A stretch of 64,000 bases of DNA, taken from the IMG/VR virus record IMGVR_UViG_3300031867_000020, positions 43,885 through 107,884 of that record; one strand, given 5' to 3'. This document shows positions 3 through 62,745 of this stretch, piece by piece (position 1 is the first letter of the stretch; the number at the start of each line of letters is the position of its first letter). Both the position numbers and the translations under genes were made by a program. The notes beneath the pieces are model-generated. The model searched no databases. It had not been told where the DNA came from and saw only the letters and a program-made list of their open reading frames with translations. This DNA comes from a virus. Lineage: Duplodnaviria; Caudoviricetes.

Positions 3-3000
3 CTATTTGAACGAACAGTCGCAGTAGATAAAAAAGATGAAAATGGTAAGATTATCGGTTCAGAAGCGAAATCTATTATCAAAGGACCGTTATCTGATTA
101 TATGACAAATGAACAAAAGGCGGATTTATTTGATATTGAAAATGAAAATGAAGAAATACGAAAAGATGCAAAAGAGAGTCGAGATCAGTTTTTAGCGTCA
201 ATAGAAGCTGAAAAGAAAACGGCAGAAACGATTAAAAAGCATTTGCCAACATTGTTCAATGCTGATAAAACACAAGATGCGCAAGAGTGGGCTAATATCA
301 CAGGAGAAATTCAAGATCCATCTACAGTCTTAGAGCAATCCTTTGAAGCAAAGAAAGCAGAAATAACAAAAAGGATTCTTTCATGGAATAAATCAGTTGC
401 AGAAATGCAAAAAGATATAGATGATAATAATGCCACTCCTGCTTTAGTTCCTTTCTACAAAGAATTAATTAATGAATATAGCAATCGTGCCCAAAGAGAA
501 CAAAGTTATCTTGATAGCAAAGGATATAAAGAAAAAATAGTTAACGATGAAATGCAGCGTCTTGGTTTGTCTGGCGCAGAAAACGCGCAAGATAGAGCAG
601 CAAAATGGGCGGATGAACGACAAGCGGCGATCGATAAAGCGTTAGAAGTTAATTCTGAAGAATTCGCAAGGATTTCACGAGAGACAAGAAATCCATCCAA
701 CGAAAACGAACGTGAAGCAAGATTCGCCAAGCTGAGAGAAATTAATGAAAGGGCTCAAGGCTTATACAGACAAAGAGCGCAAAACAGAGAGCAGAGAACT
801 GCTTTTGAACAAACATGGCAAGAAGAACAGGATGATAGATTAACTAATTTTGATAATATGATTAACAGAAAGAGACTTTCTGATGAGGACAGAATTGAAA
901 CTAATGTAAAACAAGCAAGAAGACAAGCTCTGTATAATTCAATTGATCCTAAAAAGACAAAACAAGAAAGAGAAGAATGGTATAAAAGATATAAAGATGA
1001 AGACTACTGGAAGTCGTACAGGGGCAACCTTCAGCAAGAAACAAATAATGATAACCAACTTCGTGATCTTAGAAGAATAAATAGTGAAGAACAAAATCTT
1101 GCGGATATTCAGATGCGTGAGAAGCAAACGCAATGGGCGAGGGATGACTTCTATCGCAACCTGCAAAATCGAAATGGCCTTGGCTATACGATGTTTGGCC
1201 GCAACTATCTTACTTATCAAAACCGTAGGATTCAACTTGAGAGAGATAATACACGGAGAACAAGTCAAAATGAGAGCATTGATAGGCAAGTAAAAGATCT
1301 TGATCAACAAATCAAAAATGCAAAAGCGCAAGGTAAAACAGAAGACGCAAAAGACCTTGAAACCAAAAAAGCGAACCTTTTAGCTAACAAGCAATCCAAT
1401 CTGGATGAGATCAAGAGAACACAACAGGAACTGAATGGTTTAAGTGGCGCTGGGAATGCCGTCAATGCAACCTTTGATACAATAGGTCAAACGATCACAA
1501 GGTTCACACAACGCATAGGAAGACAAATGTTCCAAAAAGCTCTTCAGGAGACAAAACGGTTTATCAAAGAATTTGATTCTTCGATGAATGAAATTCAAGC
1601 TATTACGCTGAAGGGCGATCAGGCGATGGCGAGTGTTCGTAGCAATACGATCAACAAAGCCTTGAACCTCAGAACTTCTGTTTCCAATGTTGCATCTACA
1701 GAAGCCGCGCTTTACAGGCAGGGTTTAAGTGACTCAGAGGTTTCTCAAAGAACAGATGCGATCGTAAAGTTTGCAACTGTTGCAAAGCTGAAAACCACAG
1801 AAGCAACGAAGATCATCACAACAGCTCTTCAAAATAACCTCGTTACCTCTGCGGAGCAAGCGATGGACGCGCTTGTCGCTCTTGGCGACAGCGCTGCGAC
1901 TACCGCTGCGGAGATCGGCAAAGGTATGCAAAAGGCTGCCGCGTCCGCCAAGGTTGCCGGTGTGTCTTATGCTGAACTTACTTCTTTGTTAACCTTTGGT
2001 ACAAGCGATACGCAGCTGAGCGGTTCTCAGGTTGGTACAGCCTTACAGACTGTGTTTACACGTATGAGAAGGCTTACGGCTGACAACTGGGTTGCTGATC
2101 AGAACGGCGAAAAGACCACGGCAAACGACGCAGAAAAGGCTTTGAATACGATTGGTGTTTCTCTGTGGAGCGACAAAGCAAATGGTCAGATGCGTGGAGC
2201 TTATGATATTCTTATTGATATTGCCAAGGTATGGAATAGCATCAGCGATGCCCAGAAGAGCATTGTCACCAGCGCTTTGGCTGGAACACGTCAAACGAAC
2301 ATTTTCTCTACGCTTATGGAAGGTCTCGGAGAAGACGGCGGCAAGAGAGCTGAGGAATATCTCGGGCTCGCTGAAAGCAGTCAAGGCATTACTCAGACCA
2401 AGTATGAAATTGCCATGGAAAGCCTGAATGCTTCTCTCGAGACAGTGAAATCTTCGTGGGATGCTATTGTAGAAAGCTTTACAAACAGTGGTACTATCAC
2501 CGGTGTTCTTGATGGTGTCTCTGGCTTTATGCAGATGATAGCTAACTTGGCAAGCACAGGTCCTGGTCAGTTTACAACGGTGTTTGCCGCGATTGCCGGA
2601 GGCATCGCTGCTGTTGCTGCTGCTTCTGCTCTGTTGACGACAAGCAATCCTGTGTTAAAGACTTTGAGCACGTTGTTAACAGTTGTAGCTGGTGTTGGAA
2701 CGTTTGGTATATTAACATCCATTGCCGGGTTATTCGCAGGAGAAGATATAAACACACAAAAAGAAAAAAGCTTGACTAAAATGCATGAAGAAGCAGTAAA
2801 ACGAGAAGGCAAAAGAGCAGAAAGAACAAAAGCAATTAGCGATGTAGAAGAACTTGGTGCTGCTTATGATGAATTAGCAGAAGCAGAAAATAGTGCAGCT
2901 TTAAGTACAGCATCAAATAATTTAAAATCTGCTTTGCTTAATCTTGCTGATGTATTTCCTAATTTAACAGCACAAATTATGGATTCTACAAGTTCGCTTA

Positions 3001-6000
3001 AGGACTGGAGAGACATCGTAGATAAAGCGAAAAAAGAAAATGAAGATATAACAGCAGGTGAAATGGATGTCATAATAGCAAAATCCAGAGAACATAATGA
3101 TAAATTTGATGATTATATGGGTAATATTGAAGATCCGTCATCTATTGAATCAGATTCTGTACGAGCCTTATACACTATACTCCATGCAGCCAATGCGTCT
3201 GGACTGGTTTCAAATAAGGATGTTGAAGATGGAATTAGTGCATATGAATTATATACCTTAGGAAACAAAACAATGAATGGATATTTTAAAGATTACACAG
3301 ATAAGGTTGGAGGAATTAATTTTACAGATGATTTTAGTTCAGACAACGAAGCATATATCGATAAACCACAAACGGACTTTTTAAAAGAATTAATTGAATC
3401 AGACAATCCGCACATAAATCGAAGTTTAAGAAAATACTATGATGAAAATAAAAAAGCTTTTGGATGGGTTGATAATAATGGCGAAGAAATATATACCTAT
3501 GATGACTTTATTTCTGCATTAAAGGGAAACGAAACTGATAATGTTTATCATATGGCAAACGCAGCTGGTACAGCAAGAGGATGGATTTCTGAAGATGCTA
3601 CCAGTCATTATGGAAGCAATTTTTTAGCAGGTATGTCTTTAAATCCGATGAGAGCAGAAGTGATTCAGTCGATCTTTGATGGTTTTGACAACAATAGAAC
3701 TATATCTGTTGCAAAAGGCGTTTTAAAAGGTGGAGTTATTGATCAAGCGAAAGAATACTTAGATGCGTTCGAAACAAATGGATTAATGACACTTTTATCT
3801 GAAGCAACAGGTGGTGAGTATAGTGCTGATTTCATAAAAGAGGTAATGGAAAGACAAATCTATGATATCTTATTTGATGAAAACGGCGAAATGAAAAAAG
3901 GTGTAACAATAGAAAATGTTAACACTGGATTAAATAATTTCTTAGATGGATACATGACAGCAAAGGATAAAAGAAAATACTTGCAAGAATATATTGATCA
4001 GTATGCATCTCCTGATATGTATGAGTATTTTCTTCCTGATGAAAATGGAGGAATTGAATACAAAGGGTATACAACTATTGAAGCGGCAACAAAAGCTGCA
4101 AAAGAAAAAGGAATCGGTACGGAAAACATCATGGTATCCGACGGAAAGGGTTGGTATAGGGCTTATTACTCTACTCCTGAAGAAGTGATGACTGCAAGAG
4201 TTATGGCTGGAAAGTCGGGAGGTATAGGATATAACGAGAAAAGAGATTTCTTAAAAGATATGAATAAGTTTGATAATATTGGTGCTTTAAAAAAGGAATA
4301 TAGTGGTGATAAATCCGAAACCTTTGGTTCGCTTCTTTCAGGTGATGTCAGTACCGCTGCTTATTATATGGCGGAAAATGGTCTTATCAGCTATAATAAA
4401 TTTAAAGATATATATGGAAGGAATGTGAACGGACAAAACACGGACTTTGATCTGATAGAACCTTTCCTGAACGAGAATGGTACGATTAAAAATATAGATC
4501 TTCTGAGAACAGACGAGTTCAAAGGAGCAAGACAGGCTTTTGAAAATGTATTTGGCTCTACTACTTTCGCTGAAATGCTTGATAAAACGGATGAAATTAC
4601 TCGCGCCGAATTTGATAAAATTAAAGAAAAGGGTTTATGGACAGGTGATTTTGAGTCACTAATGACAGATTATATGCCTGAAAAAGATGATACTGTTTCG
4701 GTAGCTACACGTTTCTTACAAAAGGAGCTTCGGGAACTAATAGCAAATGCTGTTGGTGCTTATGAGTTTGATGAAGATCTTGCAAGAACCGTAAAGCAAG
4801 CACAGGCATCCAAAGAAATAGAGAGAAAGTTCCAGTTCGATGAAAACTATGATACGATCAAAAACTATGGTTTAGCTTTTGGATATGGAACAGAGACGCA
4901 GAAGAATGCATCGCGTGCTCAAGTCAGAAGCACAACGACAAACCTCGGCAATTTCAACGCAGCTGTTGACAGATATACAAATGGCAAGGCTCGCGATGAA
5001 GATTATCGTGTTATTGCCGGAGTAACAGGAATGTCTGAAAGCTATCTGAGAAATAATGCCAACAGCAAAACCACAAAAAATGTTGTAGGTGCAAGAAGAG
5101 ATCTTGACATTCAATCTCAAATCGATCTGTACGGAAAAGTCCGTGAAGCCTCTGGTATAAAAGAAAACTCTAAGCAAGACAAAGAGTTGCTGAATCTGTT
5201 TGGATTAGAAAGAGACAAAGATGGAATCATTCGTTTTGTCGCACAAGAAGACGTTGTCTCAAATAATGTTACACGACAAAACCAGATCAACAACTATGAT
5301 AGAGCTTCTCTTCGTGATGCGTTTGGATATGCTATCACAGACGAAGGTAAAATTTATGGCAGTGACAAATTGGTTCAAAGAGCACTTGCCGGCAACGAGG
5401 AAGCATACGGAAGACTTACTCAAGACGAGCTTTATCAGGCATATGCAAACGCGGGCATTGAAGGTAATGATTTCCGTAACATGATCGGACGCAGAGCGAA
5501 AGGTGTAACCGGAACTTATGCTCAAAACTGGTCTCCTGTTATGGCAAAATTGATGGGATCAAGCAATGTAGATGAATGGGATTGGAAAAAGATCAGAGAG
5601 AATTATCAAAATGGTACATCTGAAACCAAGGCAGCATACGAAGCTTTGTTTGGGGCGACTACCAACGGACAGCAGGCTCTTGATTATCTTACCGGTGCGA
5701 GCAATAATATGCCGTCGGCTTCTTTTGCCGCCGGAGTAAAAACTCAGATGTCCGGAGTTGAAGGTGTTAATTATTCCGAGCAGTTTACTTCTTCTGATAT
5801 TTCTCGTCTTTCTGGCCGACTGCTTACTGATGGCAGAAGCTGGAACGATCTTAAAGCGGCGAATCTATTTAGTGATGAAGAATGGGCCGCTATTGAACAA
5901 GGAAATGCTGATCTTGTTTCGTATCTGAAGCTTGAAGACAAAACAACTCCTTATGCCAAGAGGCTCAGAGAAAGTGCTCAGCTCAAGATGCTTGAAGGCA

Positions 6001-9000
6001 AAAGATATGATTCTTCCTCCGACGCGGCGGCGTATGCCAGAGCTTTATTTAACTATCAAAACAAGCCAGCTCTTGCTGCACAAACAGCATATGATAACAG
6101 GAAGAATTATTCTGATATCAGCGAATTTATTAAAGCGCAAGAAAGCTTAAATGGTTGGACTGATCTTGTTGCTACACAGGAATACCAGGACTGGTATAAA
6201 GAGTATGTCGAAGGCGGAAAGAGTTATGATGAAGCGATTGAAGCATTCTCCGACCTGACCATGTACAACAGAGGAGCAAACTACAAAACATCTGCCGAAA
6301 CAGCGGATATTGTGGAACGAGCTCTTCAATCTACAGATCGCCGTAATAATACTGCTGAATACAAAGCCATTCAGTCTGTTCTCGGCAACAAAGCTGCTGC
6401 AGACTGGCTAAATGGAGAAGATCTCACCAACAATGCGACATATCAAAATATGATCAATAATTATAGATATGGACTCTCTGGATATACTGGGGCTCAGATT
6501 AGGCAAGGTCAAAGAAATATTGCCAGAATGACTCAGGAACAACTCGGAAAAAGGTTGTTAAGTGAAGAGTATAGAACTGAAGCTTCTCAATACATGTCTG
6601 GTTTCAGCGAATGGAATGAATACGCAGCTTTGCTTCAAGCTAAGGCGAGTGGAGAAAAGTATGATGAAGCTGAATTAGATAGACTTCAAACCAAGTTTGA
6701 TCGGTTTAATGAGCAGGCTCAAATACAATTTGAGGTTGATGGTATTAGTGATCTTGAACAGGCTGGAGAAGTTGTCAGCGGTTTAAGTGATACCATTTCG
6801 AAGATCAAGCAGGGCGGAAATATTGCGATCAAAGCATCTGTTGAATTCGAGAACAATGAGCATCAAACGCTTCAATATGGAGCGATGTTGGACAGCGCGT
6901 CTCGATCTGATCAGTATACGGCTGTAAAAGCCTTAACTGGTTGGAGCGACGCCCGAATCCAAAGCGACTGGGCAGGAGCGATGTCTGCTGCCAGAGCTAT
7001 TCACGGTGTTAATGTGTCCCAGTACGGCAACTCTGACGAAGAAATCGTTGCTGAGTTAAATAGGAGATATGCGAAAAATCCTGAAGATGCACTGGAACTT
7101 GCAAATCTTTTAGGGTTTGAGCTTACAACTGATAACGAAGGAAATATATCTCATCTTTCATTTAAACGCATCGGAAACGGATCAATTGATCGTGAGAATC
7201 GTTTCCATGAAACAACCCGCCAATACACAGCGCAAGAAATTAACGACGCAAGAAGACGGATGTTAAATGGAGAGAACTTAAGCCAAGAAGATAATGACTT
7301 ATATAATGCAGCTTCGGATAACGCTGGAAAGTATTTAACGGCATATCTGAAGATGATGAACAATCCAAGCGCTTATACCGACCAGGAAATTGCAGAAGCA
7401 AGACGGCGTGCAGAACAAGAGCTTAATCTTGAAGGGAAAGATGCGCGCAGAAAACCGCTGGAGGATTATGCTCTCTACGAAGAGAACGAAGCCAAGGTTA
7501 AAATGGCAACAGACATATATGACGCATATAGCAACGTTGATCAGACAAAGCGTCGTTCCATGATGTCTACAATTAGCGGTGAATTCGAAGGGATTCAGAA
7601 TGCGCAATGGGCATTAAATCAAGGTGCGACAACAAGCACATCGAGGAACTACATTGCATCCGTTCTCGGTTTAAGTGAAAAAGATGTTCAGAAAGCTATG
7701 AGAACCGATGAAGGTAAAAAACAACTCCAGGAAGATTTGCAATCCAAGAGCAAAGACTTATTCAAATCTGTTCTTGATGGATATGGTAAGGCTTTTAAAA
7801 TTGAATTCGATACATCTGATACTGGGGTTGAGAATGCAGTTAGTCAAATTCTGGAGAATGCCAGCACGCTCGGAACAGAAGTGACGAATTATCTTCTGCA
7901 TCTTGCGGGACTTATGACGAGCGATGGTCTTCTTGGAGAAAATGATGACTACGATTTTGTAACAGCCATGATGAACGCTTCTGATAATTACGCTGAAACC
8001 AAAACTTCTGAACGTGGTTATTTATGGTTATCTGAACATCCAGAAGAAGCAAGAGAGCTTTTGTCCAATCCTACGATACTTCCTGAAGGATACACATATG
8101 TTGAAGGCAAGGGAATATATGATAGCACTGGCCTTCTTGGGTACGATACGAACAGTGATTTGTATCAAAGATATCAAGCGCAAAGACAAATTTCTCAAAG
8201 CTCCGGTGTTAACTGGACCAAATTCACAGAACAAGAACCTATAATAACAGCAGCTATCTTGAATCACGGTGAAGGCGGCGTTGGAGATGAGTTATACGAC
8301 GCAATAATGACAGCAGGCGTTACAGGAGTTAAAGGTTCTGATTATTATGGAGCTATTGGCTCGAATTATCTCGGTCGGTTTGCTGGCATTAATGGCGGTA
8401 TTACCGGTATTAATTCCATGGAAGACGCAGAAGAATTTATGGGGCTTGTTCAAAAATGGCAAACTGATGAAACCGGAAATGGTGCTATCTTTGATGAATG
8501 GTATAATAGCGTTGAGGGCATGTCTGATCTTATGGGCGCTATAGATAGCAAAAACTTTGATAAAGTGGGCGAGGCTATAGGTAAGATTAATGATCAAGTA
8601 AGCGACCGGAAAGCAGCCGAAATAACGAAATACGGAAATGCTTCGGATAAAGCACTTAAAAAGATCGGTGGATATTATAACAAGATGAACAGTCTTTCAT
8701 ACAAGAATGAAAAGCTCAATGGCATTATTGGTAAAGCCAGCGCTGGAAAAGGCGGAGCTTCTCTTTCTTCGAAAGAACTTGAAGTCCTAAGCGAAGCTAC
8801 AAACATGTCTACCGATGCTCTTAAAGCTACTGGAGCAAATGCGATAAAGTCTTTGGCTGAAGGCGCAAAAGATGCAATTGATACAGAGTGGGGACAAGAA
8901 ATTGCTGAACCTCTCATTAATAGCATTAATGAGGGTATACAACACCTGAATTTGAATGATAATGAAAAATTACAGCTTACGAGGGCTATTGATTTGTCTG

Positions 9001-12000
9001 TTGATGCAAATACAGGACAGGTAGATATTTCCGCTTTGGCTGATGCCGTTGCTACTTTTGATAGCAGTCTCGCAGAAACACTCCGTGCCTACGATGGACA
9101 CGGAGGAACGCTTATGGCTGAGTGGAAAGAAGGCCAGAGTTCTCTTGGATATATTTTAAAATACCTCGGATCCGGAACGGGCACTACCGGCGGTAAAGGC
9201 GGCGGAGGAGGCGGAGGTGGCGGAGGCAAGTCCGAAGTCGACAAACTTCTCGAAAAGCAAAAGCATGCCGTCACCGAGGCCGAGCATAACGTCAAGATGA
9301 CCCAGATCGAGGGCGAGCATTATCAGAAAACTGGTGACTACGCCGCTTATCTGAAGATGCTCGATCAAGAAATCGCCGCGCAGGAAAAGCTTGGGCAGGT
9401 ATATCAAAAGAATATTAAAGAAATGAAAGCGCAGAGAGATCAGGTTGCGTATGGTTCGGATGACTGGTATAAGCTGACGGAGTCCATCTTCTCTACAGAA
9501 GAAGCTTTGGCTCAACTGAAACTTACAATTAACGAGATCAATGGCAAGAGAATTGACGCGCTGATCAACAGACAGGAAGTAAGCCTCAGTCCGTATCAGC
9601 ACGCAGGAAAATTGATGTCCACAGCAGCCAACAAGGCGTTGACACTTAAAAACTATTCTGATTATTATTATCTTGGAAAAAGACAAAATACCAACGATCA
9701 GATGACGATCAATGCAAATAATAAGTCTATCGATCAACTGAAAGAAGAACTTAAAAAGGAAAAGTATATGAGTGAAAACTGGATTAAGGTTCGTCAGCAG
9801 ATCTGGTCTCTTCAAGAAGAGAATGCTGAGCTTGAGCTTAGCATTGTTGAACGAACCAATGAGATGAACCATCAGAGAGTTGCTCAGATCGCAGAAGAAC
9901 TTGAGCGGAATAGGCTCGCTGATCCTACGCATGGAATGAATATGGAAAATGCTGCGGCTCAGTATTATCAGAGGAACAGGCTTTATGATGAGTATCGTGG
10001 ATCGTTGACCACATCAAACACCTTTGCTCAGTCTCAGGTTTCGGAATACAGAAAGGCAATTGCTGCGCTGAAGGTTCGCATGAACGGCTTTGAGCCGGAT
10101 TCCGATGCCTGGTATGAAGCCAGAGATATGGTTTACAAGTACGAGGAAGCCATTGCTTCGCTTACTAATACTATTGATGAAAACAAACATGCGATTCAGG
10201 AGTCGTATATCACCGAACTGGATGAAGAATTCCAGAGAGGAGACAGCATTTACAGTCTTGAAAAGAGCATGCTTCAGGCAATGGAAACCAAGTATGATAA
10301 GGATAATGACTTTGTGAATTATCTGAATATTATTGGAATCGAAGCAAATCAGGCAAAGGATCGAATGAATGAACTTAGCGATCAGCTTGTTCAATGGGAA
10401 GATCTTCTTGCAAGCGGCCTGATTGATGAAGGATCTGCTGAATGGGATGAGCTTATTCAGAAGATCATGAGCGTTAGGGAAGAAATGATTAATGTTGGCG
10501 TTGAATATGATGACTTTGTCCGGAAACTTCAACAAAGTCGGTTTGCGCATGATAAGGAAGTGTTCGGACGTGAGGACGAATACAACCAGCATCGAATCAA
10601 ACTGATTCAGTATGAGGAGTCCAGGTATCAGAACCTTGGTGAACTGACCAACTATGGCACTATGCTTGAATATGATAACGTTGAACAGCAAAGACGCGCT
10701 GAATCCATCGCAAAGTATATCGAAGTTCTGAAGCAAGATCTTGCTGAGACGGAAGAAGGCACTGATGTCTATCATGAGATCACATCTGAAATCATGAAGA
10801 TGGAAGAGAACCTTGCGACCGTAAACAACACAATCGAAAAGAATAACAAACTGCTTGAGCAGAACAGGCTGAACATCCTGAAAGTGCATAAAGCGCTGGA
10901 CGATGTGATCAACACAGAGATCAAGCGCAGAGTACAAGAACAGCGAGACATGCTCAATGCTGAAGTAACGCTTCAGGATTCCATTGTGGATCAGATCAGA
11001 AAGCGGTATCAGGACGAATGGGCGCTTGTAAAGAAAGATATCGAAGAGAAGAAGAAGGCTCTGAGTGAAGAGAAGAATCTTCTCAACGAACGTCTCAATG
11101 CCAGAAAGAATGCTGTTGATCAGGAGTCCAAGTATGAGAAGCTGGCTGAGCTTCAGAAACAGCTTGCGCTGATTGAAACAGATCCGACAAAAACCAAAGA
11201 AGCCAAGTTGATCGGAAAGCAAATTAAGGATCTTCGACAGGAGATCTCGTTGAGTATCGCGGATCAGGAAGTGCTTGCGGAATCCGAACGTATTGATCAG
11301 CAAACGCAGGCTCTGACAGATTATGCGACAGATTATGAAACCAAACTCAATGAAGCTCTTGCGGATGCTAATAACAAACTGATCGCTGATGAGCTTGATC
11401 AGGTGATGAGCGGTAATTTTGAAAGCTATATTGAATGGATGAAGACTTACAACAAAGCTTATCAGAATGCCACAGAGGAAGCAAGAAAACAGATGGAGCT
11501 TGGATGGAGAGACACCTGGAACAAGATGATCGCTTATATCGATACTTATTGGGACGAGGTCGAGGCTATTCATAATATGACCGAAGACGAGTATGTGAAC
11601 TGGCTGAAACAGGGAACCAATTATAAGTTTGCTTCTGATACAGAAAAGCAGATCATGGAGTACGAGTGGCGCGAACGGTATCAGAATGAGATCGCCGCGC
11701 ACAGAACAGGTGCGAGCTTCGAAGATTATCACAGCATCACAGAAAAGCTGAATGAACTTCAGGACTATACATACAGTGTAGACTTCTCTGAAGCAACAAT
11801 GAGCTTTATTAATGGCCTGTTTGATTACACACTGTTTAATCATCCGCATGGATCCTATTGGGATACCGGCGTAAGTGACGAAGTGTTAGGTGCGGATTAC
11901 TATGGGAGAATGAGCGACCTGCATAAGACAGAAACAAAACCGACAAACACTGGCGGCAGTAGTTCTACAACTCCTACTTCCGGTGGCGGTTCTGGTTCGA

Positions 12001-12542
12001 GCAGCAGCACTTCTGTTCAGCGGTATACAATAGCGCTTGAAAACGGAAGATATGTTGTAAAACTCTATGAAGGCGGTCAATATACAAGCTATACGGACGC
12101 TAAGAATCAAGCTGATCTTTTGAACAGAATGCTGAATCAAAGCGGAACCCCTGCTGCAGACAGTGGGATCACAACTCCTTATTCTGGCTTCACCATAGGT
12201 GAACCTCAGAAGTTTGCCTCGGGTGGCCTTGTTGATTACACAGGTCCTGCGTGGGTGGACGGTACTCCTACACGTCCCGAAGCGTTCCTGGATCCTGAAG
12301 ACACAGAGTTGATCAGAGCAATGGTTGATTCGTTAAGCTATGTCCATCTGAAGACGCCGACGATTATGCCTGATACATCTGATTATGGAAACAACAATAC
12401 GATCGGAGATATCAATATTACAATTAATCAGGCTGAACTTAGCAGCGATGCTGATATTGATCAGCTTGCGCGTAGGGTTGGCAGTGCTTTCACAAGAGAG
12501 CTTTCTCATCAGGGTCTTAACCTTGCGAACTACAGTTTTTAA
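3..12542 (+). CDS. Giant phage tail tape measure protein (5' end lies outside the window)
   Basis: The frame is open from base 3, upstream of the ATG at 102. A TP901-like tape measure core (FIKEFDSSMNEIQAIT...ALYRQGL...SAATTAAEIGKGMQK...GTRQTNIF) lies at ~1560-2480. Long coiled-coil regions, a C-terminal FASGGLVDYTGPAWVDGTPTRPE motif, and position directly before the Dit-like gene also fit. Confidence 0.93.
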   Translation, partial: LFERTVAVDKKDENGKIIGSEAKSIIKGPLSDYMTNEQKADLFDIENENEEIRKDAKESRDQFLASIEAEKKTAETIKKHLPTLFNADKTQDAQEWANITGEIQDPSTVLEQSFEAKKAEITKRILSWNKSVAEMQKDIDDNNATPALVPFYKELINEYSNRAQREQSYLDSKGYKEKIVNDEMQRLGLSGAENAQDRAAKWADERQAAIDKALEVNSEEFARISRETRNPSNENEREARFAKLREINERAQGLYRQRAQNREQRTAFEQTWQEEQDDRLTNFDNMINRKRLSDEDRIETNVKQARRQALYNSIDPKKTKQEREEWYKRYKDEDYWKSYRGNLQQETNNDNQLRDLRRINSEEQNLADIQMREKQTQWARDDFYRNLQNRNGLGYTMFGRNYLTYQNRRIQLERDNTRRTSQNESIDRQVKDLDQQIKNAKAQGKTEDAKDLETKKANLLANKQSNLDEIKRTQQELNGLSGAGNAVNATFDTIGQTITRFTQRIGRQMFQKALQETKRFIKEFDSSMNEIQAITLKGDQAMASVRSNTINKALNLRTSVSNVASTEAALYRQGLSDSEVSQRTDAIVKFATVAKLKTTEATKIITTALQNNLVTSAEQAMDALVALGDSAATTAAEIGKGMQKAAASAKVAGVSYAELTSLLTFGTSDTQLSGSQVGTALQTVFTRMRRLTADNWVADQNGEKTTANDAEKALNTIGVSLWSDKANGQMRGAYDILIDIAKVWNSISDAQKSIVTSALAGTRQTNIFSTLMEGLGEDGGKRAEEYLGLAESSQGITQTKYEIAMESLNASLETVKSSWDAIVESFTNSGTITGVLDGVSGFMQMIANLASTGPGQFTTVFAAIAGGIAAVAAASALLTTSNPVLKTLSTLLTVVAGVGTFGILTSIAGLFAGEDINTQKEKSLTKMHEEAVKREGKRAERTKAISDVEELGAAYDELAEAENSAALSTASNNLKSALLNLADVFPNLTAQIMDSTSSLKDWRDIVDKAKKENEDITAGEMDVIIAKSREHNDKFDDYMGNIEDPSSIESDSVRALYTILHAANASGLVSNKDVEDGISAYELYTLGNKTMNGYFKDYTDKVGGINFTDDFSSDNEAYIDKPQTDFLKELIESDNPHINRSLRKYYDENKKAFGWVDNNGEEIYTYDDFISALKGNETDNVYHMANAAGTARGWISEDATSHYGSNFLAGMSLNPMRAEVIQSIFDGFDNNRTISVAKGVLKGGVIDQAKEYLDAFETNGLMTLLSEATGGEYSADFIKEVMERQIYDILFDENGEMKKGVTIENVNTGLNNFLDGYMTAKDKRKYLQEYIDQYASPDMYEYFLPDENGGIEYKGYTTIEAATKAAKEKGIGTENIMVSDGKGWYRAYYSTPEEVMTARVMAGKSGGIGYNEKRDFLKDMNKFDNIGALKKEYSGDKSETFGSLLSGDVSTAAYYMAENGLISYNKFKDIYGRNVNGQNTDFDLIEPFLNENGTIKNIDLLRTDEFKGARQAFENVFGSTTFAEMLDKTDEITRAEFDKIKEKGLWTGDFESLMTDYMPEKDDTVSVATRFLQKELRELIANAVGAYEFDEDLARTVKQAQASKEIERKFQFDENYDTIKNYGLAFGYGTETQKNASRAQVRSTTTNLGNFNAAVDRYTNGKARDEDYRVIAGVTGMSESYLRNNANSKTTKNVVGARRDLDIQSQIDLYGKVREASGIKENSKQDKELLNLFGLERDKDGIIRFVAQEDVVSNNVTRQNQINNYDRASLRDAFGYAITDEGKIYGSDKLVQRALAGNEEAYGRLTQDELYQAYANAGIEGNDFRNMIGRRAKGVTGTYAQNWSPVMAKLMGSSNVDEWDWKKIRENYQNGTSETKAAYEALFGATTNGQQALDYLTGASNNMPSASFAAGVKTQMSGVEGVNYSEQFTSSDISRLSGRLLTDGRSWNDLKAANLFSDEEWAAIEQGNADLVSYLKLEDKTTPYAKRLRESAQLKMLEGKRYDSSSDAAAYARALFNYQNKPALAAQTAYDNRKNYSDISEFIKAQESLNGWTDLVATQEYQDWYKEYVEGGKSYDEAIEAFSDLTMYNRGANYKTSAETADIVERALQSTDRRNNTAEYKAIQSVLGNKAAADWLNGEDLTNNATYQNMINNYRYGLSGYTGAQIRQGQRNIARMTQEQLGKRLLSEEYRTEASQYMSGFSEWNEYAALLQAKASGEKYDEAELDRLQTKFDRFNEQAQIQFEVDGISDLEQAGEVVSGLSDTISKIKQGGNIAIKASVEFENNEHQTLQYGAMLDSASRSDQYTAVKALTGWSDARIQSDWAGAMSAARAIHGVNVSQYGNSDEEIVAELNRRYAKNPEDALELANLLGFELTTDNEGNISHLSFKRIGNGSIDRENRFHETTRQYTAQEINDARRRMLNGENLSQEDNDLYNAASDNAGKYLTAYLKMMNNPSAYTDQEIAEARRRAEQELNLEGKDARRKPLEDYALYEENEAKVKMATDIYDAYSNVDQTKRRSMMSTISGEFEGIQNAQWALNQGATTSTSRNYIASVLGLSEKDVQKAMRTDEGKKQLQEDLQSKSKDLFKSVLDGYGKAFKIEFDTSDTGVENAVSQILENASTLGTEVTNYLLHLAGLMTSDGLLGENDDYDFVTAMMNASDNYAETKTSERGYLWLSEHPEEARELLSNPTILPEGYTYVEGKGIYDSTGLLGYDTNSDLYQRYQAQRQISQSSGVNWTKFTEQEPIITAAILNHGEGGVGDELYDAIMTAGVTGVKGSDYYGAIGSNYLGRFAGINGGITGINSMEDAEEFMGLVQKWQTDETGNGAIFDEWYNSVEGMSDLMGAIDSKNFDKVGEAIGKINDQVSDRKAAEITKYGNASDKALKKIGGYYNKMNSLSYKNEKLNGIIGKASAGKGGASLSSKELEVLSEATNMSTDALKATGANAIKSLAEGAKDAIDTEWGQEIAEPLINSINEGIQHLNLNDNEKLQLTRAIDLSVDANTGQVDISALADAVATFDSSLAETLRAYDGHGGTLMAEWKEGQSSLGYILKYLGSGTGTTGGKGGGGGGGGGGKSEVDKLLEKQKHAVTEAEHNVKMTQIEGEHYQKTGDYAAYLKMLDQEIAAQEKLGQVYQKNIKEMKAQRDQVAYGSDDWYKLTESIFSTEEALAQLKLTINEINGKRIDALINRQEVSLSPYQHAGKLMSTAANKALTLKNYSDYYYLGKRQNTNDQMTINANNKSIDQLKEELKKEKYMSENWIKVRQQIWSLQEENAELELSIVERTNEMNHQRVAQIAEELERNRLADPTHGMNMENAAAQYYQRNRLYDEYRGSLTTSNTFAQSQVSEYRKAIAALKVRMNGFEPDSDAWYEARDMVYKYEEAIASLTNTIDENKHAIQESYITELDEEFQRGDSIYSLEKSMLQAMETKYDKDNDFVNYLNIIGIEANQAKDRMNELSDQLVQWEDLLASGLIDEGSAEWDELIQKIMSVREEMINVGVEYDDFVRKLQQSRFAHDKEVFGREDEYNQHRIKLIQYEESRYQNLGELTNYGTMLEYDNVEQQRRAESIAKYIEVLKQDLAETEEGTDVYHEITSEIMKMEENLATVNNTIEKNNKLLEQNRLNILKVHKALDDVINTEIKRRVQEQRDMLNAEVTLQDSIVDQIRKRYQDEWALVKKDIEEKKKALSEEKNLLNERLNARKNAVDQESKYEKLAELQKQLALIETDPTKTKEAKLIGKQIKDLRQEISLSIADQEVLAESERIDQQTQALTDYATDYETKLNEALADANNKLIADELDQVMSGNFESYIEWMKTYNKAYQNATEEARKQMELGWRDTWNKMIAYIDTYWDEVEAIHNMTEDEYVNWLKQGTNYKFASDTEKQIMEYEWRERYQNEIAAHRTGASFEDYHSITEKLNELQDYTYSVDFSEATMSFINGLFDYTLFNHPHGSYWDTGVSDEVLGADYYGRMSDLHKTETKPTNTGGSSSTTPTSGGGSGSSSSTSVQRYTIALENGRYVVKLYEGGQYTSYTDAKNQADLLNRMLNQSGTPAADSGITTPYSGFTIGEPQKFASGGLVDYTGPAWVDGTPTRPEAFLDPEDTELIRAMVDSLSYVHLKTPTIMPDTSDYGNNNTIGDINITINQAELSSDADIDQLARRVGSAFTRELSHQGLNLANYSF

Positions 12543-54735: not shown

Positions 54736-55044
54736 TCAATCTCCTTTCGCATGCGTCAGCCAGTCTCTGCTTGCGGCATAATGGATAGCATCGTGTATAA
54801 TAGACCAATCACCATCTGTACAATTATTAAGATCATCAAGATAATGAGTATTCATAACCTCGTTTACGTTATGATCACTTGGTTCAAACCCGTTGATCTG
54901 AAGACAGTCTTTTATGTCGTCGATACACCAGAGTTTTGCTGCCACAAAATCTGTCTCAACTACAATTTCTTCGTCTGAAAAATGAAGAAGTTTGCAATTG
55001 ATCTCATGGTACGAACCGTCTTTCAAAATAAGATTAAGAAGCAT
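54736..55044 (-). CDS. Acidic hypothetical protein
   Basis: SD AAGGAGGT precedes the ATG at 55044. Confidence 0.6.
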   Translation of the reverse strand: MLLNLILKDGSYHEINCKLLHFSDEEIVVETDFVAAKLWCIDDIKDCLQINGFEPSDHNVNEVMNTHYLDDLNNCTDGDWSIIHDAIHYAASRDWLTHAKGD

Positions 55045-55058
55045 TACAACCTCCTTGT

Positions 55059-55095
55059 AAAAAAATACGAGAGGGCTGTCATCGACAACCCTCTC
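55059..55095 (-). terminator. Terminator downstream of tRNA-Leu
   Basis: GAGAGGGTTGTC GAT GACAGCCCTCTC followed by a T-run. Confidence 0.7.
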
Positions 55096-55097
55096 AG

Positions 55098-55178
55098 TGC
55101 TGGTAGTGGGACTTGAACCCACACGCACAAGGCTGCAGATTTTAAGTCTGTTTCGTCTGCCAGTTCCGACATACCAGC
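55098..55178 (-). tRNA. tRNA-Leu (anticodon UAA), no encoded CCA
   Basis: GCTGGTA TG TCGGAACTGGCAGACGA A ACAGA CTTAAAA TCTGC [variable arm] GTGGG TTCAAGT CCCAC TACCAGC A. Confidence 0.9.
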
Positions 55179-55206
55179 ATACAGGGCCTAATGGCCCTGT
55201 GGTTGG

Positions 55207-55344
55207 TTACTCGGTGTAATACTCATCGAGTTCGTCGTCCAGCTCTCTTTCAGCGGCAGCAAGAGCGCTTGTCGCATCCTCGACCGCTGCCTTGTAAGCT
55301 TCGATGTCCTTGTAGAGCTGTGTGATCTTACTGGCTTGATCCAT
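55207..55344 (-). CDS. 45-aa acidic coiled-coil peptide (not in ORF track)
   Basis: SD AAGGAG; MDQASKITQLYKDIEAYKAAVEDATSALAAAERELDDELDEYYTE. Confidence 0.65.
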   Translation of the reverse strand: MDQASKITQLYKDIEAYKAAVEDATSALAAAERELDDELDEYYTE

Positions 55345-55347
55345 TGA

Positions 55348-55407
55348 TTAATCTCCTTCATCGACGGCGTTGTTGCCGTAATTATCATCTCCGTAGACAA
55401 CCAACAA
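55348..55407 (-). CDS. Possible 19-aa acidic micro-ORF
   Basis: Perfect SD AAGGAGGTGA, then TTG; MLVVYGDDNYGNNAVDEGD. Confidence 0.4.
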   Translation of the reverse strand: MLVVYGDDNYGNNAVDEGD

Positions 55408-55455
55408 GTATTTCACCTCCTTGCAGAATTTATGAAAACAGCTGGAGATACGCTG

Positions 55456-55881
55456 TCATTCATCAGGATCATAAACGAAGTCGTCGTCCTCGATCGCGTC
55501 GGCTTCGGCCTCCTCGATCTCGTCCTCGTCCTTTTCGTATACATCGTACACTTTATATTTGGATATGTTTCCCCTCGGTTCTCCTTTTGTGGCCGATCTT
55601 TCGATAGACCTCAGGATGACCCCGACAGACAGGGGCGAAGCGACGACGGCTCCGTTGTCCAGGATGACAACACTTTTTGCAGCCGCAAGGCTGCAGGCGT
55701 TGATCAGGGTTCCCGCTTTTTTCTCATTGGCTATTGCTTTTTTTGCCTGGTTGATCTCGGCAGACATGATCGCAACGATTCTTGTAGCGCAGATTGCCAC
55801 ATCGAAATTCTTTGCGCGACCGTCTGCCTGTTTTCTTTTGGTTGAGACCTTGATGAATTTTAATGGTAATGAATAACCCAC
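55456..55881 (-). CDS. RemA/DUF370-like protein with an acidic C-terminal tail
   Basis: Ungapped match by eye to the RemA core: ICATRIVAIMSAE...KKAI...AGTLINA...KSVVILDNGAVVAS. Confidence 0.72.
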   Translation of the reverse strand: MGYSLPLKFIKVSTKRKQADGRAKNFDVAICATRIVAIMSAEINQAKKAIANEKKAGTLINACSLAAAKSVVILDNGAVVASPLSVGVILRSIERSATKGEPRGNISKYKVYDVYEKDEDEIEEAEADAIEDDDFVYDPDE

Positions 55882-55917
55882 AGTCCAGTCCTCCTTGTTC
55901 AGCAGGACTCCCTTCTG

Positions 55918-56214
55918 TCAGTCGCCAAAGGAATAATCATTACCGCCAAAAGCGCTGGGAACAGAATAGCCTGTTCCGGCATCCGTGAAAATATCCTGAC
56001 CGCAGATCGGATCAGGAGCCGAGTATCCGTTGACATCTCCTGCGATATCCACACCGCCGAAAGGAGATTTGAAAGTGGAAATAGTCATGTTGTCGGATGT
56101 GTAAATATCCTCTCCGCCGAATGCGCTTTTGACAGAGTATGCCACGGCATTTCCGCTTTCATCAAAATAGTCAGAGCCTCCGAAAACGCTTGGAATACTA
56201 TAATAGTTGTTCAT
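55918..56214 (-). CDS. Small repeat protein (five SxxSxFGGxD repeats)
   Basis: SIPSVFGGSD, SVKSAFGGED, TFKSPFGGVD, SAPDPICGQD, SVPSAFGGND; SD GGAGG. Confidence 0.65.
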   Translation of the reverse strand: MNNYYSIPSVFGGSDYFDESGNAVAYSVKSAFGGEDIYTSDNMTISTFKSPFGGVDIAGDVNGYSAPDPICGQDIFTDAGTGYSVPSAFGGNDYSFGD

Positions 56215-56241: not shown

Positions 56242-59200
56242 TCAGGCTGTTTGTTTGTATACTTCGTATTTCTTAACCCAGTATTCTTTCTCTCCGGGGA
56301 TTTCGATTCGTTTTCCGTTACGAAAGGTGAACCTCGGTCTCTTTTCACCATCCAGAAGTCGGATACAGCTGTCAATGCCAAACGGCTGCTTGGCAAAGGC
56401 GTCCTTGGAAAACCGAACAGTGCCAGTCGTGCCTCTTTGAACGCTGTAAAGTTTGATCCTGATGCCGAATTTATCATCGACATCCTGCACAAAATACATC
56501 GAAGAGGGCGCTTTCATGTATGTCGAGAAGCAAAGACCGATGTTATCATTTTCGGCTGTCAGCCGCTCGACGATCGGCATTTCGAAATCCTGAAGGGTTT
56601 GTTCATATTCCCGGAGCTTCTCGAGGCGCTCCGGGAAAGACTTGATGGTTTTGGTAAGCTTGTTTGAACCTTCGAAGAACTCGTGATAAACCTGCATCAG
56701 CTTGCCGGTTTGACCAAACCTTTTGAAATACCCTATAGATATAAGCACTTCTATCTGCCTTGTATTAAGAGACGTATTCATCTGAATAGCTCTCAACACA
56801 TTGGTGAAGCAGTCAAGTTTGGCTTTGTGAACGATCTCTTCCGCTTTGGATTCAAGATACTTATCGTCCAGATACAGAAGATCTTTTTCGTTCGACAGCG
56901 CGGATGCTTTCTCTCCGGCTTCAACGGAATCAATCAGCTTGTATTCCCAGTCGTATTCCACCTGCTTGATTTCCTGATTGATCCGCTTCAGTTCCGCTTT
57001 GCCTTCTTTGTTCAGCTTGGCTGGAACAATTTGTGTTCCCATCTCTGCTTCATCTGACAAGCCGAGCTCATACAGGTCTTCAGCAGCCTGCTTGGACATG
57101 AACTTCACAGCGGAAATAGACTGTGAAATAGTGTTGTTTTCCTTGTCCATCCGCCAGTCTCTGTTGTCCTGACCAAACTCACCATTGGTCATGAGAATGT
57201 GCCGGTAAGCCTTCATCTCCGTAATGATAGAGGCAAGCTTATCCTTGTTTTTCTTCTCGTCATACAGCTTCAGCATAGTCGTATAAAGCTCAAATGGATA
57301 ATGAACCTTCAGCCACGCGACATACAGAGAGTCGCAGGCCATGGATAAACTGTGAGCTGCGCAGAACATATAGCTTGCGGCATTTTCGATGATCGTCCAG
57401 ATCCTTTCAACTACATCGTTCGCCTTTTCTTCCGACGCGCCTTCTGTCTTTTGCAGATATTTCGCAAAGCCTTCACGGAACCGTTCCTTATAAGCCATAA
57501 CTTTCTCATGCTTTTTCTTCTTTATTGCTTTCGTGCAGGCGTAAGCATCAGGCCCAGGAATGCCTGCGGCTTTGAGGATCTGAAGGATCTGTTCATCATA
57601 CATCAGGAAAGAATCCGGAATAGCTTTTGTCTGAAGCAGCTTATCCAAAGAAGGAATACCATATTCAAAATGCTGCCTTGTGATAAAAGTGTTCAGCATG
57701 GACTTAAAGCCGGGACGGATAGCTGCCACAAAAGCACCGAGCTCTTCGATGCTTTTCGGCTTATACTGCATGCATCTCTGGGCAGACTTGGGCTGTTCAC
57801 ACTGGTTCAGTCCCTGCGTGAAACCCTTCCAGTACAGATCCCATACCTGCTCATCGTTCTTTACCGCTTCAAGCAACTCATCCACAGTCATGATCTCAAG
57901 ACCGGCCGCATGGAAAGCTTCGGAGATGATCTTGACCACATCTACCCGGAGAAAGTCGGCCTTCACATAATTTTGAGCATCGGCAGTACGCCCGTCGATA
58001 TAAGCAGCGTAAACGGGCTCTTTTGATCCGGCCTTGGACTTGACACGGATCACGCCAATTTCCCTGCGGAGATCCTTATCTAAGAGAATATGAGCGCACG
58101 GATGAGGAGATATGCTCGTAATAATACCATTGTACTGTTTCGAGTCTTCGATCAAAGGAAGATACTGAGCTTCAATATAATTCTCGATCTTTACATCATC
58201 AGTGACATCATAGTCCGGATCATCCGCATTGTTTTCCAGCGCATGTTTGACATCCAGCTCATAGTTTGATATCTGCTTGGAGACTTCATTCGCGGTTTCA
58301 AAATCCAGATCTCTTGCTCTGGCAAGAAGCTTAAACGCAGACAGTGTTTTCAGCGTACCGAAAGCGATCATCGGCAGACATCCGTACTCTCCGAGAATTT
58401 CCTTTCCTGCCTTCTCGAAAGCTGGAACGTTAGCCATGTTTAAATCCAAATCGGGTAGGCCATTGGCCAACCTGTCAGCTGAAATAAACCGCTCAGGATA
58501 CATCTTGATAGGGGAATGAAGCCTATTAATGGACGAGAAACCCAAAGCATAGTTGGTGCAGAAGGAAGCACCCGAACCTCTGCCGGTCATCGTCAGCACG
58601 CCGCCATATTCTTTGCCTTTGTCGACAATGTCTTTCAGTGCAAGGAAATAATCGGCTGTGTCGGTGTTGGCGATGGTGTCCATTTCTTCATGAATTTGTT
58701 TCGCTTCATCGTCATTTGGCATTCCCGCTTTGTCTATATAGCTGTAACAGCAGAGCTTTTTGTACATATGGTTACGCTGAGCAAGAGACAATTCGGGATG
58801 TGTGACGGGAATTTTCTTATCATTGGTGAAATGAACGCCTTCAAACTCCCGCAGTTGAAGCGTGTTTTCCATCGCTTCTTCAATTCTTGCTTTACTCAGC
58901 ACGCCTTGCTGAAACAGCAGCTGATAAGCTTCCTGTGCGGTAGGAAGGTGCAGACAGAACTCATCCTCATTTCCATAGGTAATCTTGGCGGAGAGAAGCA
59001 GTTCTTTTCTTAAAGCCGCGTCTTCCTTGTTGACGTAATGCGAATCTGTCCCATAGATCAGAGGCCAGTGGTACTTCTGATAAAGCCTCAGAACCTTCAT
59101 GTTGGTTTCGCATTGAATCTGCTGAGGATGATGCTGCACTTCGAGATAGAAATTTTCCTTGAAGATCTCATGCAGTTGCAAGGCAAGCCTTTCAGCCTCC

Positions 59201-59667
59201 GGATCCTTCATAATACCGCCAACACAGGCTGTTGTGCAAAGAAAGTTTTTGTAATTGAGCCTTGAAAGAATATCCAGATCGACCCTGGCATAACGATAGA
59301 AGCCTGTCAGATTCGCTTCGGAGATGGCCTCGTTGAGATCGTGGAAACCTTCCATGTTTTTGGCTACCAGAATCAAATGGAAGTGCCTGTCGTCCTTCTT
59401 GCTGTCTATTTCTTTCAGTCTGTCCGGTACGAAATACACTTCAGCCGCCGCAAGCGGCGTCATGGTAAAGGTATCGTCCGAATACTTCTTTGCAAGATCA
59501 AATTGCTCCCAAACATTGGAACGATTTCCATGTTCAGACAGGCACAACACATGATGCCCTCTTTCTTTGAAGACTTTTGCATAATCTTCAATGAACATAG
59601 TGGAATCCGGTTGGGTAAGACAGTTTGAATAACACGAATGCACATGATAAGGTTCGAACTCAATCAA
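56242..59667 (-). CDS. dnaE: DNA polymerase III alpha subunit (family C)
   Basis: PHP domain (HVHS, EHG, HLIL, TDSHY), GRGSG, ERFIS..R...LPDLDL, HPCA, KADFL, FCAAHS. Confidence 0.95.
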   Translation of the reverse strand: MIEFEPYHVHSCYSNCLTQPDSTMFIEDYAKVFKERGHHVLCLSEHGNRSNVWEQFDLAKKYSDDTFTMTPLAAAEVYFVPDRLKEIDSKKDDRHFHLILVAKNMEGFHDLNEAISEANLTGFYRYARVDLDILSRLNYKNFLCTTACVGGIMKDPEAERLALQLHEIFKENFYLEVQHHPQQIQCETNMKVLRLYQKYHWPLIYGTDSHYVNKEDAALRKELLLSAKITYGNEDEFCLHLPTAQEAYQLLFQQGVLSKARIEEAMENTLQLREFEGVHFTNDKKIPVTHPELSLAQRNHMYKKLCCYSYIDKAGMPNDDEAKQIHEEMDTIANTDTADYFLALKDIVDKGKEYGGVLTMTGRGSGASFCTNYALGFSSINRLHSPIKMYPERFISADRLANGLPDLDLNMANVPAFEKAGKEILGEYGCLPMIAFGTLKTLSAFKLLARARDLDFETANEVSKQISNYELDVKHALENNADDPDYDVTDDVKIENYIEAQYLPLIEDSKQYNGIITSISPHPCAHILLDKDLRREIGVIRVKSKAGSKEPVYAAYIDGRTADAQNYVKADFLRVDVVKIISEAFHAAGLEIMTVDELLEAVKNDEQVWDLYWKGFTQGLNQCEQPKSAQRCMQYKPKSIEELGAFVAAIRPGFKSMLNTFITRQHFEYGIPSLDKLLQTKAIPDSFLMYDEQILQILKAAGIPGPDAYACTKAIKKKKHEKVMAYKERFREGFAKYLQKTEGASEEKANDVVERIWTIIENAASYMFCAAHSLSMACDSLYVAWLKVHYPFELYTTMLKLYDEKKNKDKLASIITEMKAYRHILMTNGEFGQDNRDWRMDKENNTISQSISAVKFMSKQAAEDLYELGLSDEAEMGTQIVPAKLNKEGKAELKRINQEIKQVEYDWEYKLIDSVEAGEKASALSNEKDLLYLDDKYLESKAEEIVHKAKLDCFTNVLRAIQMNTSLNTRQIEVLISIGYFKRFGQTGKLMQVYHEFFEGSNKLTKTIKSFPERLEKLREYEQTLQDFEMPIVERLTAENDNIGLCFSTYMKAPSSMYFVQDVDDKFGIRIKLYSVQRGTTGTVRFSKDAFAKQPFGIDSCIRLLDGEKRPRFTFRNGKRIEIPGEKEYWVKKYEVYKQTA

Positions 59668-62355: not shown

Positions 62356-62745
62356 TCAGAACGGAATGTAAGATCCGTTCGATTCTTGGCTATTATTATT
62401 CTTATTCTTGTTTCCGTCGCTCTTGCGATCAAGAAGCTGTGTGCTGTAGGAGCTGACACGAAGAGTGGGGTGCTTGACGCCTTCGCGATCCGTGTATTCG
62501 TCAAGCTTCAGGCTGCCAACGACCATGACGCGGCTGAGCTTCTTCAGACCATTCTGAATCAGAATATCACCGGCACGACCCCAGACGGACACATCATAGA
62601 AATCAGATTCAAAATACTTGGAATCTTCCTTCTTCTTATCCGTCTGAACGGCAACGCGGAAGTTTGTCACAGAATTGTTATTAACTTGACGGGTCACAGG
62701 ATCGGCAACGAGAGTACCCGGAAAAGAAACAGTAGCGCTATTCAT
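62356..62745 (-). CDS. ssb: Single-stranded DNA-binding protein
   Basis: G.LVADP..R, NFRVAV, FYDVSVWG, Y.DREG, C-terminal IPF. Confidence 0.9.
   Translation of the reverse strand: MNSATVSFPGTLVADPVTRQVNNNSVTNFRVAVQTDKKKEDSKYFESDFYDVSVWGRAGDILIQNGLKKLSRVMVVGSLKLDEYTDREGVKHPTLRVSSYSTQLLDRKSDGNKNKNNNSQESNGSYIPF

Follow-up and report, generated by a model that had tools for sequence, protein, structure and literature searches.

A dnaE-linked RemA-like protein of ruminant gut phages, more likely a servant of phage DNA than a decoy of host RemA

Background

Is a phage protein that resembles the biofilm regulator RemA, and in which the DNA-binding arginines of RemA are replaced, a decoy of the host regulator or a protein that works on the phage's own DNA? 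To our knowledge, RemA (YlzA, DUF370/PF04025), with its unusual DNA-wrapping ring, has been described solely as a protein of bacterial chromosomes that activates genes for matrix and osmoprotection. The gene considered here lies in a stretch of viral DNA of 64,000 nucleotides (the window) that makes up the right-hand part of a viral record of 107,884 bp; the record is complete, and its ends overlap by 127 bp. The initial annotation, made from the letters of the window, described the gene product as a RemA homologue with an altered DNA-binding loop and an acidic tail and proposed that it might poison the rings of host RemA.

Several properties of RemA bear directly on this proposal. In the RemA ring R18 bridges to D59 of the adjacent subunit and thereby sets the ring stoichiometry, an octamer, and the single substitutions R50A and R51A each abolish DNA binding and function (PMC8481266). 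R18 sits at the central pore (PMC13740483), lining a hole of approximately 20 Å. The fold is not confined to DNA binding, as SwrD forms a hexameric ring of the RemA fold without the DNA-binding motif (PMC13740483). One LytTR domain superimposes on two neighbouring RemA subunits, with its DNA-contacting loops corresponding to the R50-R53 loop of RemA (PMC8481266).

Results

Fold and equivalent residues of the RemA-like protein

The RemA-like gene occupies positions 55456..55881 on the minus strand and encodes a protein of 141 amino acids, with a GTG start codon at 55881 and a stop codon at 55456-55458. A Shine-Dalgarno sequence (AGGAGG, 55890..55895, minus strand) can be read from the sequence at a spacing of 8 nt from the GTG, and the N-terminus M-G-Y-x-L-P-L is conserved across homologues. 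Residues 26-88 match the Pfam RemA-like family PF04025 with an E-value of 9e-11 and a score of 42.2 bits, above the gathering cut-off of 26, and a six-frame search of the genome with the same model gave 43 bits for this gene. A phmmer search of the PDB aligned Geobacillus RemA (7BM2/7P1W) to phage residues 29-86 without gaps. An AlphaFold2 model built from 120 homologues has a core of high confidence (pLDDT of approximately 90, residues 30-100) with strands at residues 9-11, 29-31, 35-40, 59-61, 70-74 and 79-82 and helices at residues 44-56 and 86-97; the model thus reproduces the wedge fold of RemA, a beta-beta-alpha arrangement of six strands with two helices. When the model was compared with the PDB using Foldseek, RemA chains were the only matches at E<1e-3, with TM scores of 0.79-0.87 (normalized to target length) and rmsd values of 2.2-2.4 Å. 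The homology to RemA asserted in the initial annotation is therefore real. The protein is nevertheless a new phage variant of the RemA-like family and not a RemA equivalog: identity to RemA is approximately 20% in the Foldseek alignments, and the scores against the RemA equivalog model NF046064 of NCBIfam (29.8 bits, cut-off 140) and against PRK04323 (34.4 bits, cut-off 87) are both below threshold.

The alignments place R34 at the position of RemA R18 and D75 at the position of D59. Residues 63-69 (C-S-L-A-A-A-K; 55675..55695, minus strand) are the counterpart of the outer DNA-binding loop H-G-R-R-T-R in both the phmmer and the homologue alignments, and the phmmer alignment pairs HGRRTR with SLAAAK. 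R50, R51, T52 and R53 of RemA thus correspond to A66, A67, A68 and K69; none of the three loop arginines is present in the window's copy, as the initial annotation had noticed, and K69 is the sole basic residue of the loop. Helix alpha1 is changed as well: Q45, K48, N52 and K55 replace P29, R32, D36 and E39, through which RemA rings associate back-to-back into a 16-mer. Alignment with canonical RemA from two metagenome-assembled genomes (MAGs) was used to define an insert between beta1 and beta2, which comprises residues 14-27 (55801..55842, minus strand) and includes 5 Lys/Arg. Its 14 residues (STKRKQADGRAKNF) occupy the place of the two-residue G-F of the GFG turn, with the Phe retained as F26, which bears out the basic insert described earlier. 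The acidic tail is likewise evident: a V-Y-D-V-Y motif opens a disordered acidic-aromatic tail (residues 111-141; 55459..55551, minus strand; pLDDT of approximately 50), and the 31 residues from V111 to E141 hold 17 Asp/Glu and a net charge of -16. Because canonical RemA proteins also end in an acidic run, although a short one, this tail is best described as an extension of an existing feature rather than as something wholly new.

The RemA-like proteins form a phage-only family

A word-indexed search returned at least 352 homologues of 130-160 amino acids, all of which belong to PF04025 and many of which are encoded on contigs of 100-180 kb. An exhaustive profile search (E<=1e-10) yielded 58 clusters at 50% identity, from which cellular RemA was clearly set apart by core-only matches of 35-50 bits. 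These genes form a large phage-only family. With tblastn the protein had no match among 50,697 deposited phage records, PHROGs holds no family for the protein, and full-text literature searches returned no description of a phage RemA. Distant relatives gave weak matches to records named "Bacteriophage sp.", which were rejected as bacterial yicC-remA-gmk-priA fragments. Two of these records, MT835604.1 and MT835883.1 (both labelled "UNVERIFIED: Bacteriophage sp." and derived from human faeces), carry the chromosomal yicC-remA-gmk-priA context and look like pieces of bacterial genomes rather than phage.

The positions that hold the RemA ring together are the most strongly retained. R34 and D75 are invariant among 121 close homologues; among family representatives, the R18 equivalent is Arg in 45 of the 46 that cover the position and the D59 equivalent is Asp in 57/59. 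This near-invariance supports a RemA-type ring, and at the sequence level the Arg-Asp ring latch and the elements of beta2-beta3 augmentation are both in place. Helix alpha1 is fixed differently from RemA, with Gln at the P29 position in 121/121 close homologues and Lys at the E39 position in 120/121, while the R32 position is kept as Lys or Arg and the D36 position is mostly Asp. At the start of the tail an R-x-x-V-Y-D-V motif is nearly invariant, and 106 of the 121 homologues have an aromatic residue within their last 8 positions.

The outer loop behaves in another manner. Its family consensus, G-[RK]-x-[KA]-x-[KRQ], is variable and mostly basic, with Lys or Arg at the equivalents of G49, R50, R51 and R53 in 40/58, 11/58, 24/58 and 39/58 representatives, respectively. 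At least two loop Lys/Arg are found in 33 of the 46 full-length representatives (72% keep 2-4 Lys/Arg), and the S-L-A-A-A-K of the window's copy is the least basic loop among the representatives. The arginine-to-alanine change, for which the initial annotation had looked to conservation among phage homologues, is accordingly not conserved family-wide, and these alignments show no general loss of loop arginines in the family. The basic insert is not general either; it occurs in 10/46 full-length representatives, all of them in or near the sub-clade of the window's protein. Loops average 1.6 Lys/Arg in proteins with a basic insert versus 2.06 in those without, a weak trend with counter-examples. 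Compensation by the insert is not general, since the proteins of loci L016 and L026 lack the insert and do not have a very basic loop. The tail does not track the loss of DNA binding either, because P0190 and P0192 have a long acidic tail although their GFG turn and RRxR loop are intact; forms of this type were not found in scans of viral contigs or metagenome contigs.

The distribution of charge separates the phage proteins from RemA. The core of the phage proteins carries a net charge of +8 to +12 per subunit (median +10; +12 in the window's copy) and the tail a charge of -14 to -29 (median -18). The cores of the two canonical MAG RemA proteins, which come from candidate hosts, are at -2 and -4, and this difference suggests that the phage proteins bind nucleic acid in their own right.

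Linkage of the RemA-like gene to dnaE

The gene belongs to a minus-strand replication block that runs in the order YonO-like polymerase (across the genome ends), orf159, exonuclease, SSB, primase-helicase, PD-(D/E)XK exonuclease and DnaE, and continues after DnaE with orf98, the RemA-like gene, orf45, tRNA-Leu(UAA) and a strong terminator-like hairpin. Small ORFs, an HTH protein, a redoxin and NrdD/NrdG follow beyond the terminator. The DnaE-type DNA polymerase III alpha gene (56242..59667, minus strand; PHP, NTPase and finger domains) is the invariant upstream neighbour. In the window it is separated from the RemA-like gene by orf98 (55918..56214, minus strand), which encodes approximately five 19-residue S-x-F-G-G-x-D repeats, was located by tblastn between dnaE and the RemA-like gene in 17/33 related loci, and has no Pfam or PHROG match; locus L021 apparently has two copies. 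A gap of 27 bp separates dnaE from orf98, and one of 36 bp separates orf98 from the RemA-like gene. With such short gaps and no promoter-like site found between dnaE and the RemA-like gene, the latter is probably co-transcribed with the polymerase gene.

On the other side, orf45 (55207..55344, minus strand) encodes a small protein of the coiled-coil type, with the motif I-x-x-L-x-x-[DE]-I-E-x-Y-K-x-A-[IV]-x-D-A and an acidic end. In 13 of 27 related loci the RemA-like gene is followed by an orf45 homologue; in others its place is taken by thyX, which overlaps the stop codon. The tRNA-Leu(UAA) gene (55097..55178, minus strand), the sole tRNA called in the window, is followed directly on its 3' side by a hairpin of 13 pairs and a T-run (55068..55096, minus strand) that likely ends the unit. 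DnaE, orf98, the RemA-like gene, orf45, tRNA-Leu and the terminator thus appear to form a single co-transcribed unit. Depth spikes at 55136-55171, inside the tRNA, where loose ends of other organisms are seen as well. With the tRNA and hairpin at 55068-55178, the 130-aa ORF at 54736-55128 probably starts downstream of its first listed GTG. No repeats, iterons or repeated candidate binding motif were found near the RemA-like gene. A bovine metatranscriptome contains identical short contigs at 55205-55452, 56732-56917 and 59478-59635, which may include DNA carry-over and cannot show the level, strand or timing of expression.

The gene order was then considered across related genomes. Loci found through the RemA-like protein all show the order primase/helicase, exonuclease, dnaE, (orf98), RemA-like gene (31/31 viral loci plus two MAG contigs). 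To avoid circularity, a second sample was drawn through an alignment of DnaE homologues, a scan with a single DnaE sequence having returned no matches. This gave 36 loci, 33 of them with a DnaE at least 48% identical and with downstream DNA, and included loci that the first search had missed. In 33/33 such loci the RemA-like gene follows dnaE in the same orientation at a distance of 30-1400 bp, and two loci with a distant DnaE (22-24% identity) are without it. Within the sampled lineage the RemA-like gene belongs to the core and keeps its place behind dnaE, a behaviour not expected of an accessory gene for tuning the host biofilm. The synteny is that of one viral lineage and could partly reflect inheritance rather than functional coupling. 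In several loci (L002, L003, L010, L015 and others) dnaE itself is interrupted by insertions and broken into at least two ORFs, as in L002, where an ORF of 387 aa lies between dnaE parts of 582 and 589 aa, and this suggests introns, inteins or homing-endonuclease insertions.

Polymerases, hosts and source of the phages

A 931-aa protein encoded ahead of the replication block, across the genome ends (G000:C1:79-2874(-), equal to L041:79-2874(-)) matches the Pfam RdRP family PF05183 (E 4.9e-10) and phrog_8308 and is a candidate YonO-like single-subunit RNA polymerase. A YonO-like polymerase is present in 18/18 large related virus records, 11 of which have a second match at 24-29% identity, and phages of this lineage may transcribe largely on their own. 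A 953-aa ORF (G000:C1:17153-20014(-)) may be a second YonO-like copy.

Public sequencing runs with the window's DNA derive from bovine, sheep, goat and unspecified gut metagenomes, and the phages with the RemA-like gene, of 93-151 kb, come from ruminant gut (rumen/gut) metagenomes. The gene also occurs on two MAG contigs of phage-genome size, assigned to Ruminococcus sp. and Acutalibacteraceae, and in 1/151 genomes of the order of the candidate-host MAGs; the host link comes from the binning of these phage-sized contigs alone. Both MAGs encode a canonical RemA in the yicC-remA-gmk context.

Discussion

Alternative roles of the RemA-like protein

The proposal of the initial annotation was that phage subunits enter mixed rings with host RemA, which would then be without the arginine loop, and that acidic tails repel or mimic DNA so that RemA-dependent genes fall silent. 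Some features are compatible with such a dominant-negative role. Alanines stand at both R50 and R51 positions, either of which is indispensable for DNA binding in RemA, and of all that the protein shares with canonical RemA, the latch residues and the beta2/beta3 interface strands are conserved best. With these elements retained and a RemA present in the candidate hosts, mixed rings are physically conceivable. That RemA-controlled surfaces may matter to phages is suggested by Paenibacillus larvae, of which one phage-resistant isolate carries an Arg-to-Pro change in ylzA (remA) together with two other mutations (PMC11257554). The homology, the replaced arginines and the acidic tail on which the proposal was built all stand, but the decoy drawn from them fits poorly with the remaining results, and we consider it quite improbable. 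Arginine loss is not conserved and most family members retain a basic loop, the acidic-tailed P0190 and P0192 keep both the GFG turn and the RRxR loop, and the gene is strictly core and bound to dnaE rather than accessory. The low identity to RemA and the score of 29.8 bits against an equivalog cut-off of 140 argue against a decoy, as do the altered 16-mer residues of alpha1. A core with approximately 10 positive charges more than RemA would not be expected of a passive poison subunit, and the host assignment behind the proposal derives from binned phage-sized contigs, with the gene in one of 151 genomes of the order. The acidic tail might instead serve a different attack on the host, with the eight tails of a ring titrating restriction enzymes, nucleoid proteins or other DNA-binding proteins of the host in the manner of Ocr and ArdA. 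The tail is long, strongly acidic and equipped with conserved aromatics, and the gene appears to be expressed within an early/replication block. Known mimics, however, present folded acidic surfaces, unlike the phage tail with its predicted disorder; genes for counter-defence tend to be variable, in contrast to this core gene with its conserved surroundings; and the basic body of the ring would be left without a role. Counter-defence or host takeover through DNA mimicry is thus highly improbable.

A role within the phage replication apparatus accords better with the position of the gene, and the ring could be a scaffold that does not bind DNA on its rim. It would then act as an accessory of the DnaE replicase, in processivity or loading, or as a factor of the YonO-like polymerase, with the tails as docking sites. 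The invariant position directly after dnaE and the presence of a YonO-like polymerase in every large related record, with a second distant match in 11, point in this direction; PF00712 (the N-terminal one of the three beta-clamp domain models, and the one searched) was not found in the complete 107,884-bp genome; and SwrD demonstrates that a RemA-fold ring can work without a DNA-binding motif. The R18-lined central hole of RemA rings also counts in its favour, but with approximately 20 Å a clamp of this kind could not accommodate duplex DNA. The very basic body favours contact with nucleic acid, and phages ordinarily make do with the clamp of the host; a pure scaffold appears unlikely to us. 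A DnaN-like sliding clamp in the strict sense is unlikely given the RemA-like fold found by Foldseek and the width of the pore. A role as single-stranded DNA-binding protein was rejected; the phage encodes a separate OB-fold SSB at 62356-62745 (phrog_44), and the RemA-like protein matched no SSB family among the Pfam, PHROGs and NCBIfam-type profiles.

A ring on phage DNA

Service to the phage's own DNA handling is more likely than a decoy of the host regulator. The reading that we favour, and hold tentatively as one that could well be right, is that the protein is a ring-forming, DNA-binding architectural or replisome-associated protein on phage DNA, with an acidic-aromatic tail that gates binding or recruits a partner. 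It would be a core, lineage-specific protein of the RemA fold in phages that also possess a DnaE-type replicase, a primase-helicase, an SSB and YonO-like RNA polymerases. Its subunits would assemble into RemA-type rings through an Arg34-Asp75 latch at the pore, and the strongly basic body of the ring would bind or wrap DNA on its rim. In the window's copy the Lys/Arg-rich insert is predicted to lie beside the loop that has K69 as its only basic residue, and may replace the lost arginines. Because R18 is located at the pore, eight residues into beta2, the beta1-beta2 turn should be found beside the loop on the outer rim; we infer this placement of the insert from strand geometry, not from coordinates. 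By analogy, the disordered tail probably either turns back onto the basic body, so gating its binding to DNA, or docks on a polymerase, a helicase or an RNA polymerase. The target would be phage DNA, in the organization of origins or promoters, rather than host RemA. What speaks against a DNA-binding ring is the pair of alanines at the R50 and R51 positions and the low frequency of Lys or Arg at the R50 equivalent (just 11/58 representatives).

A stronger version of this reading makes the RemA-fold ring an obligatory accessory of the phage DNA machinery, as a new partner of the DnaE replicase or as a DNA-wrapping factor for the YonO-like polymerases. We know of no described transcription factor for YonO-like single-subunit RNA polymerases, and we regard the stronger version as unlikely.

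Comparison with known proteins

The phage protein shares with RemA of Bacillus subtilis and Geobacillus thermodenitrificans (PDB 7BM2) the fold, the Arg-Asp latch, the beta2/beta3 strands and an acidic C-terminus. It differs in having Ala at R50/R51, a 14-residue basic insert, a core charge of +12 versus approximately -2 and a 31-residue tail. The setting differs as well: remA encodes approximately 85-95 aa in a yicC-remA-gmk-rpoZ context, in contrast to a gene for 141 aa behind dnaE in a replication module. SwrD provides a precedent for other uses of a RemA-fold ring when the outer-loop motif is missing; unlike the phage protein, it is a flagellar swarming factor without the beta3-beta4 helical insertion and without an acidic tail. 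LytTR, as the C-terminal domain of AgrA, resembles RemA in that one domain superimposes on two adjacent subunits (PMC8481266), but it is a duplicated unit in a single chain carried on a receiver domain, and Foldseek returned no LytTR match for the model of the phage protein at E<1e-3.

A functional analogy may come from unrelated folds. In SSB, T7 gp2.5, T4 gp32 and HMGB1, acidic tails gate DNA binding and recruit partners. The phage protein would resemble them in its basic nucleic-acid-binding body, its disordered acidic-aromatic tail and its place in a replication module. Their OB folds or HMG box bear no relation to RemA, and the likeness is functional only.

Within the RemA fold there is now a large phage-only branch, linked to the dnaE gene and distinguished by a recharged surface and a long acidic-aromatic tail. 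If its members do form rings on phage DNA or at the replisome, they would constitute a new type of architectural or accessory protein in phage replication or transcription and a tractable system for the study of how RemA-type rings engage DNA. Were the decoy reading true, no phage antagonist of RemA would have been known before this one. The present results caution against the name "regulator of extracellular matrix RemA", which one source applies to these genes.

Other features of the related genomes

In-frame TAG codons occur inside well-conserved RemA-like genes at loci L023/L063, L049/L050, L054, L055 and L067, one at the near-invariant Gln25 and the others at K69 or L74. This suggests that some relatives may read TAG as an amino acid in an early/replication gene; the window's own phage reads well with the standard code. 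Between the YonO-like polymerase gene and the remainder of the minus-strand block, a reverse transcriptase (RVT_1, E 1.1e-23; L041:4212-5372(-)) lies beside a ThiF-family protein (L041:5377-6045(-)). The structural region of the 108-kb phage contains a single ORF of 6,363 codons (G000:C1:37335-56426), which corresponds to positions 3-12542 on the plus strand of the window.
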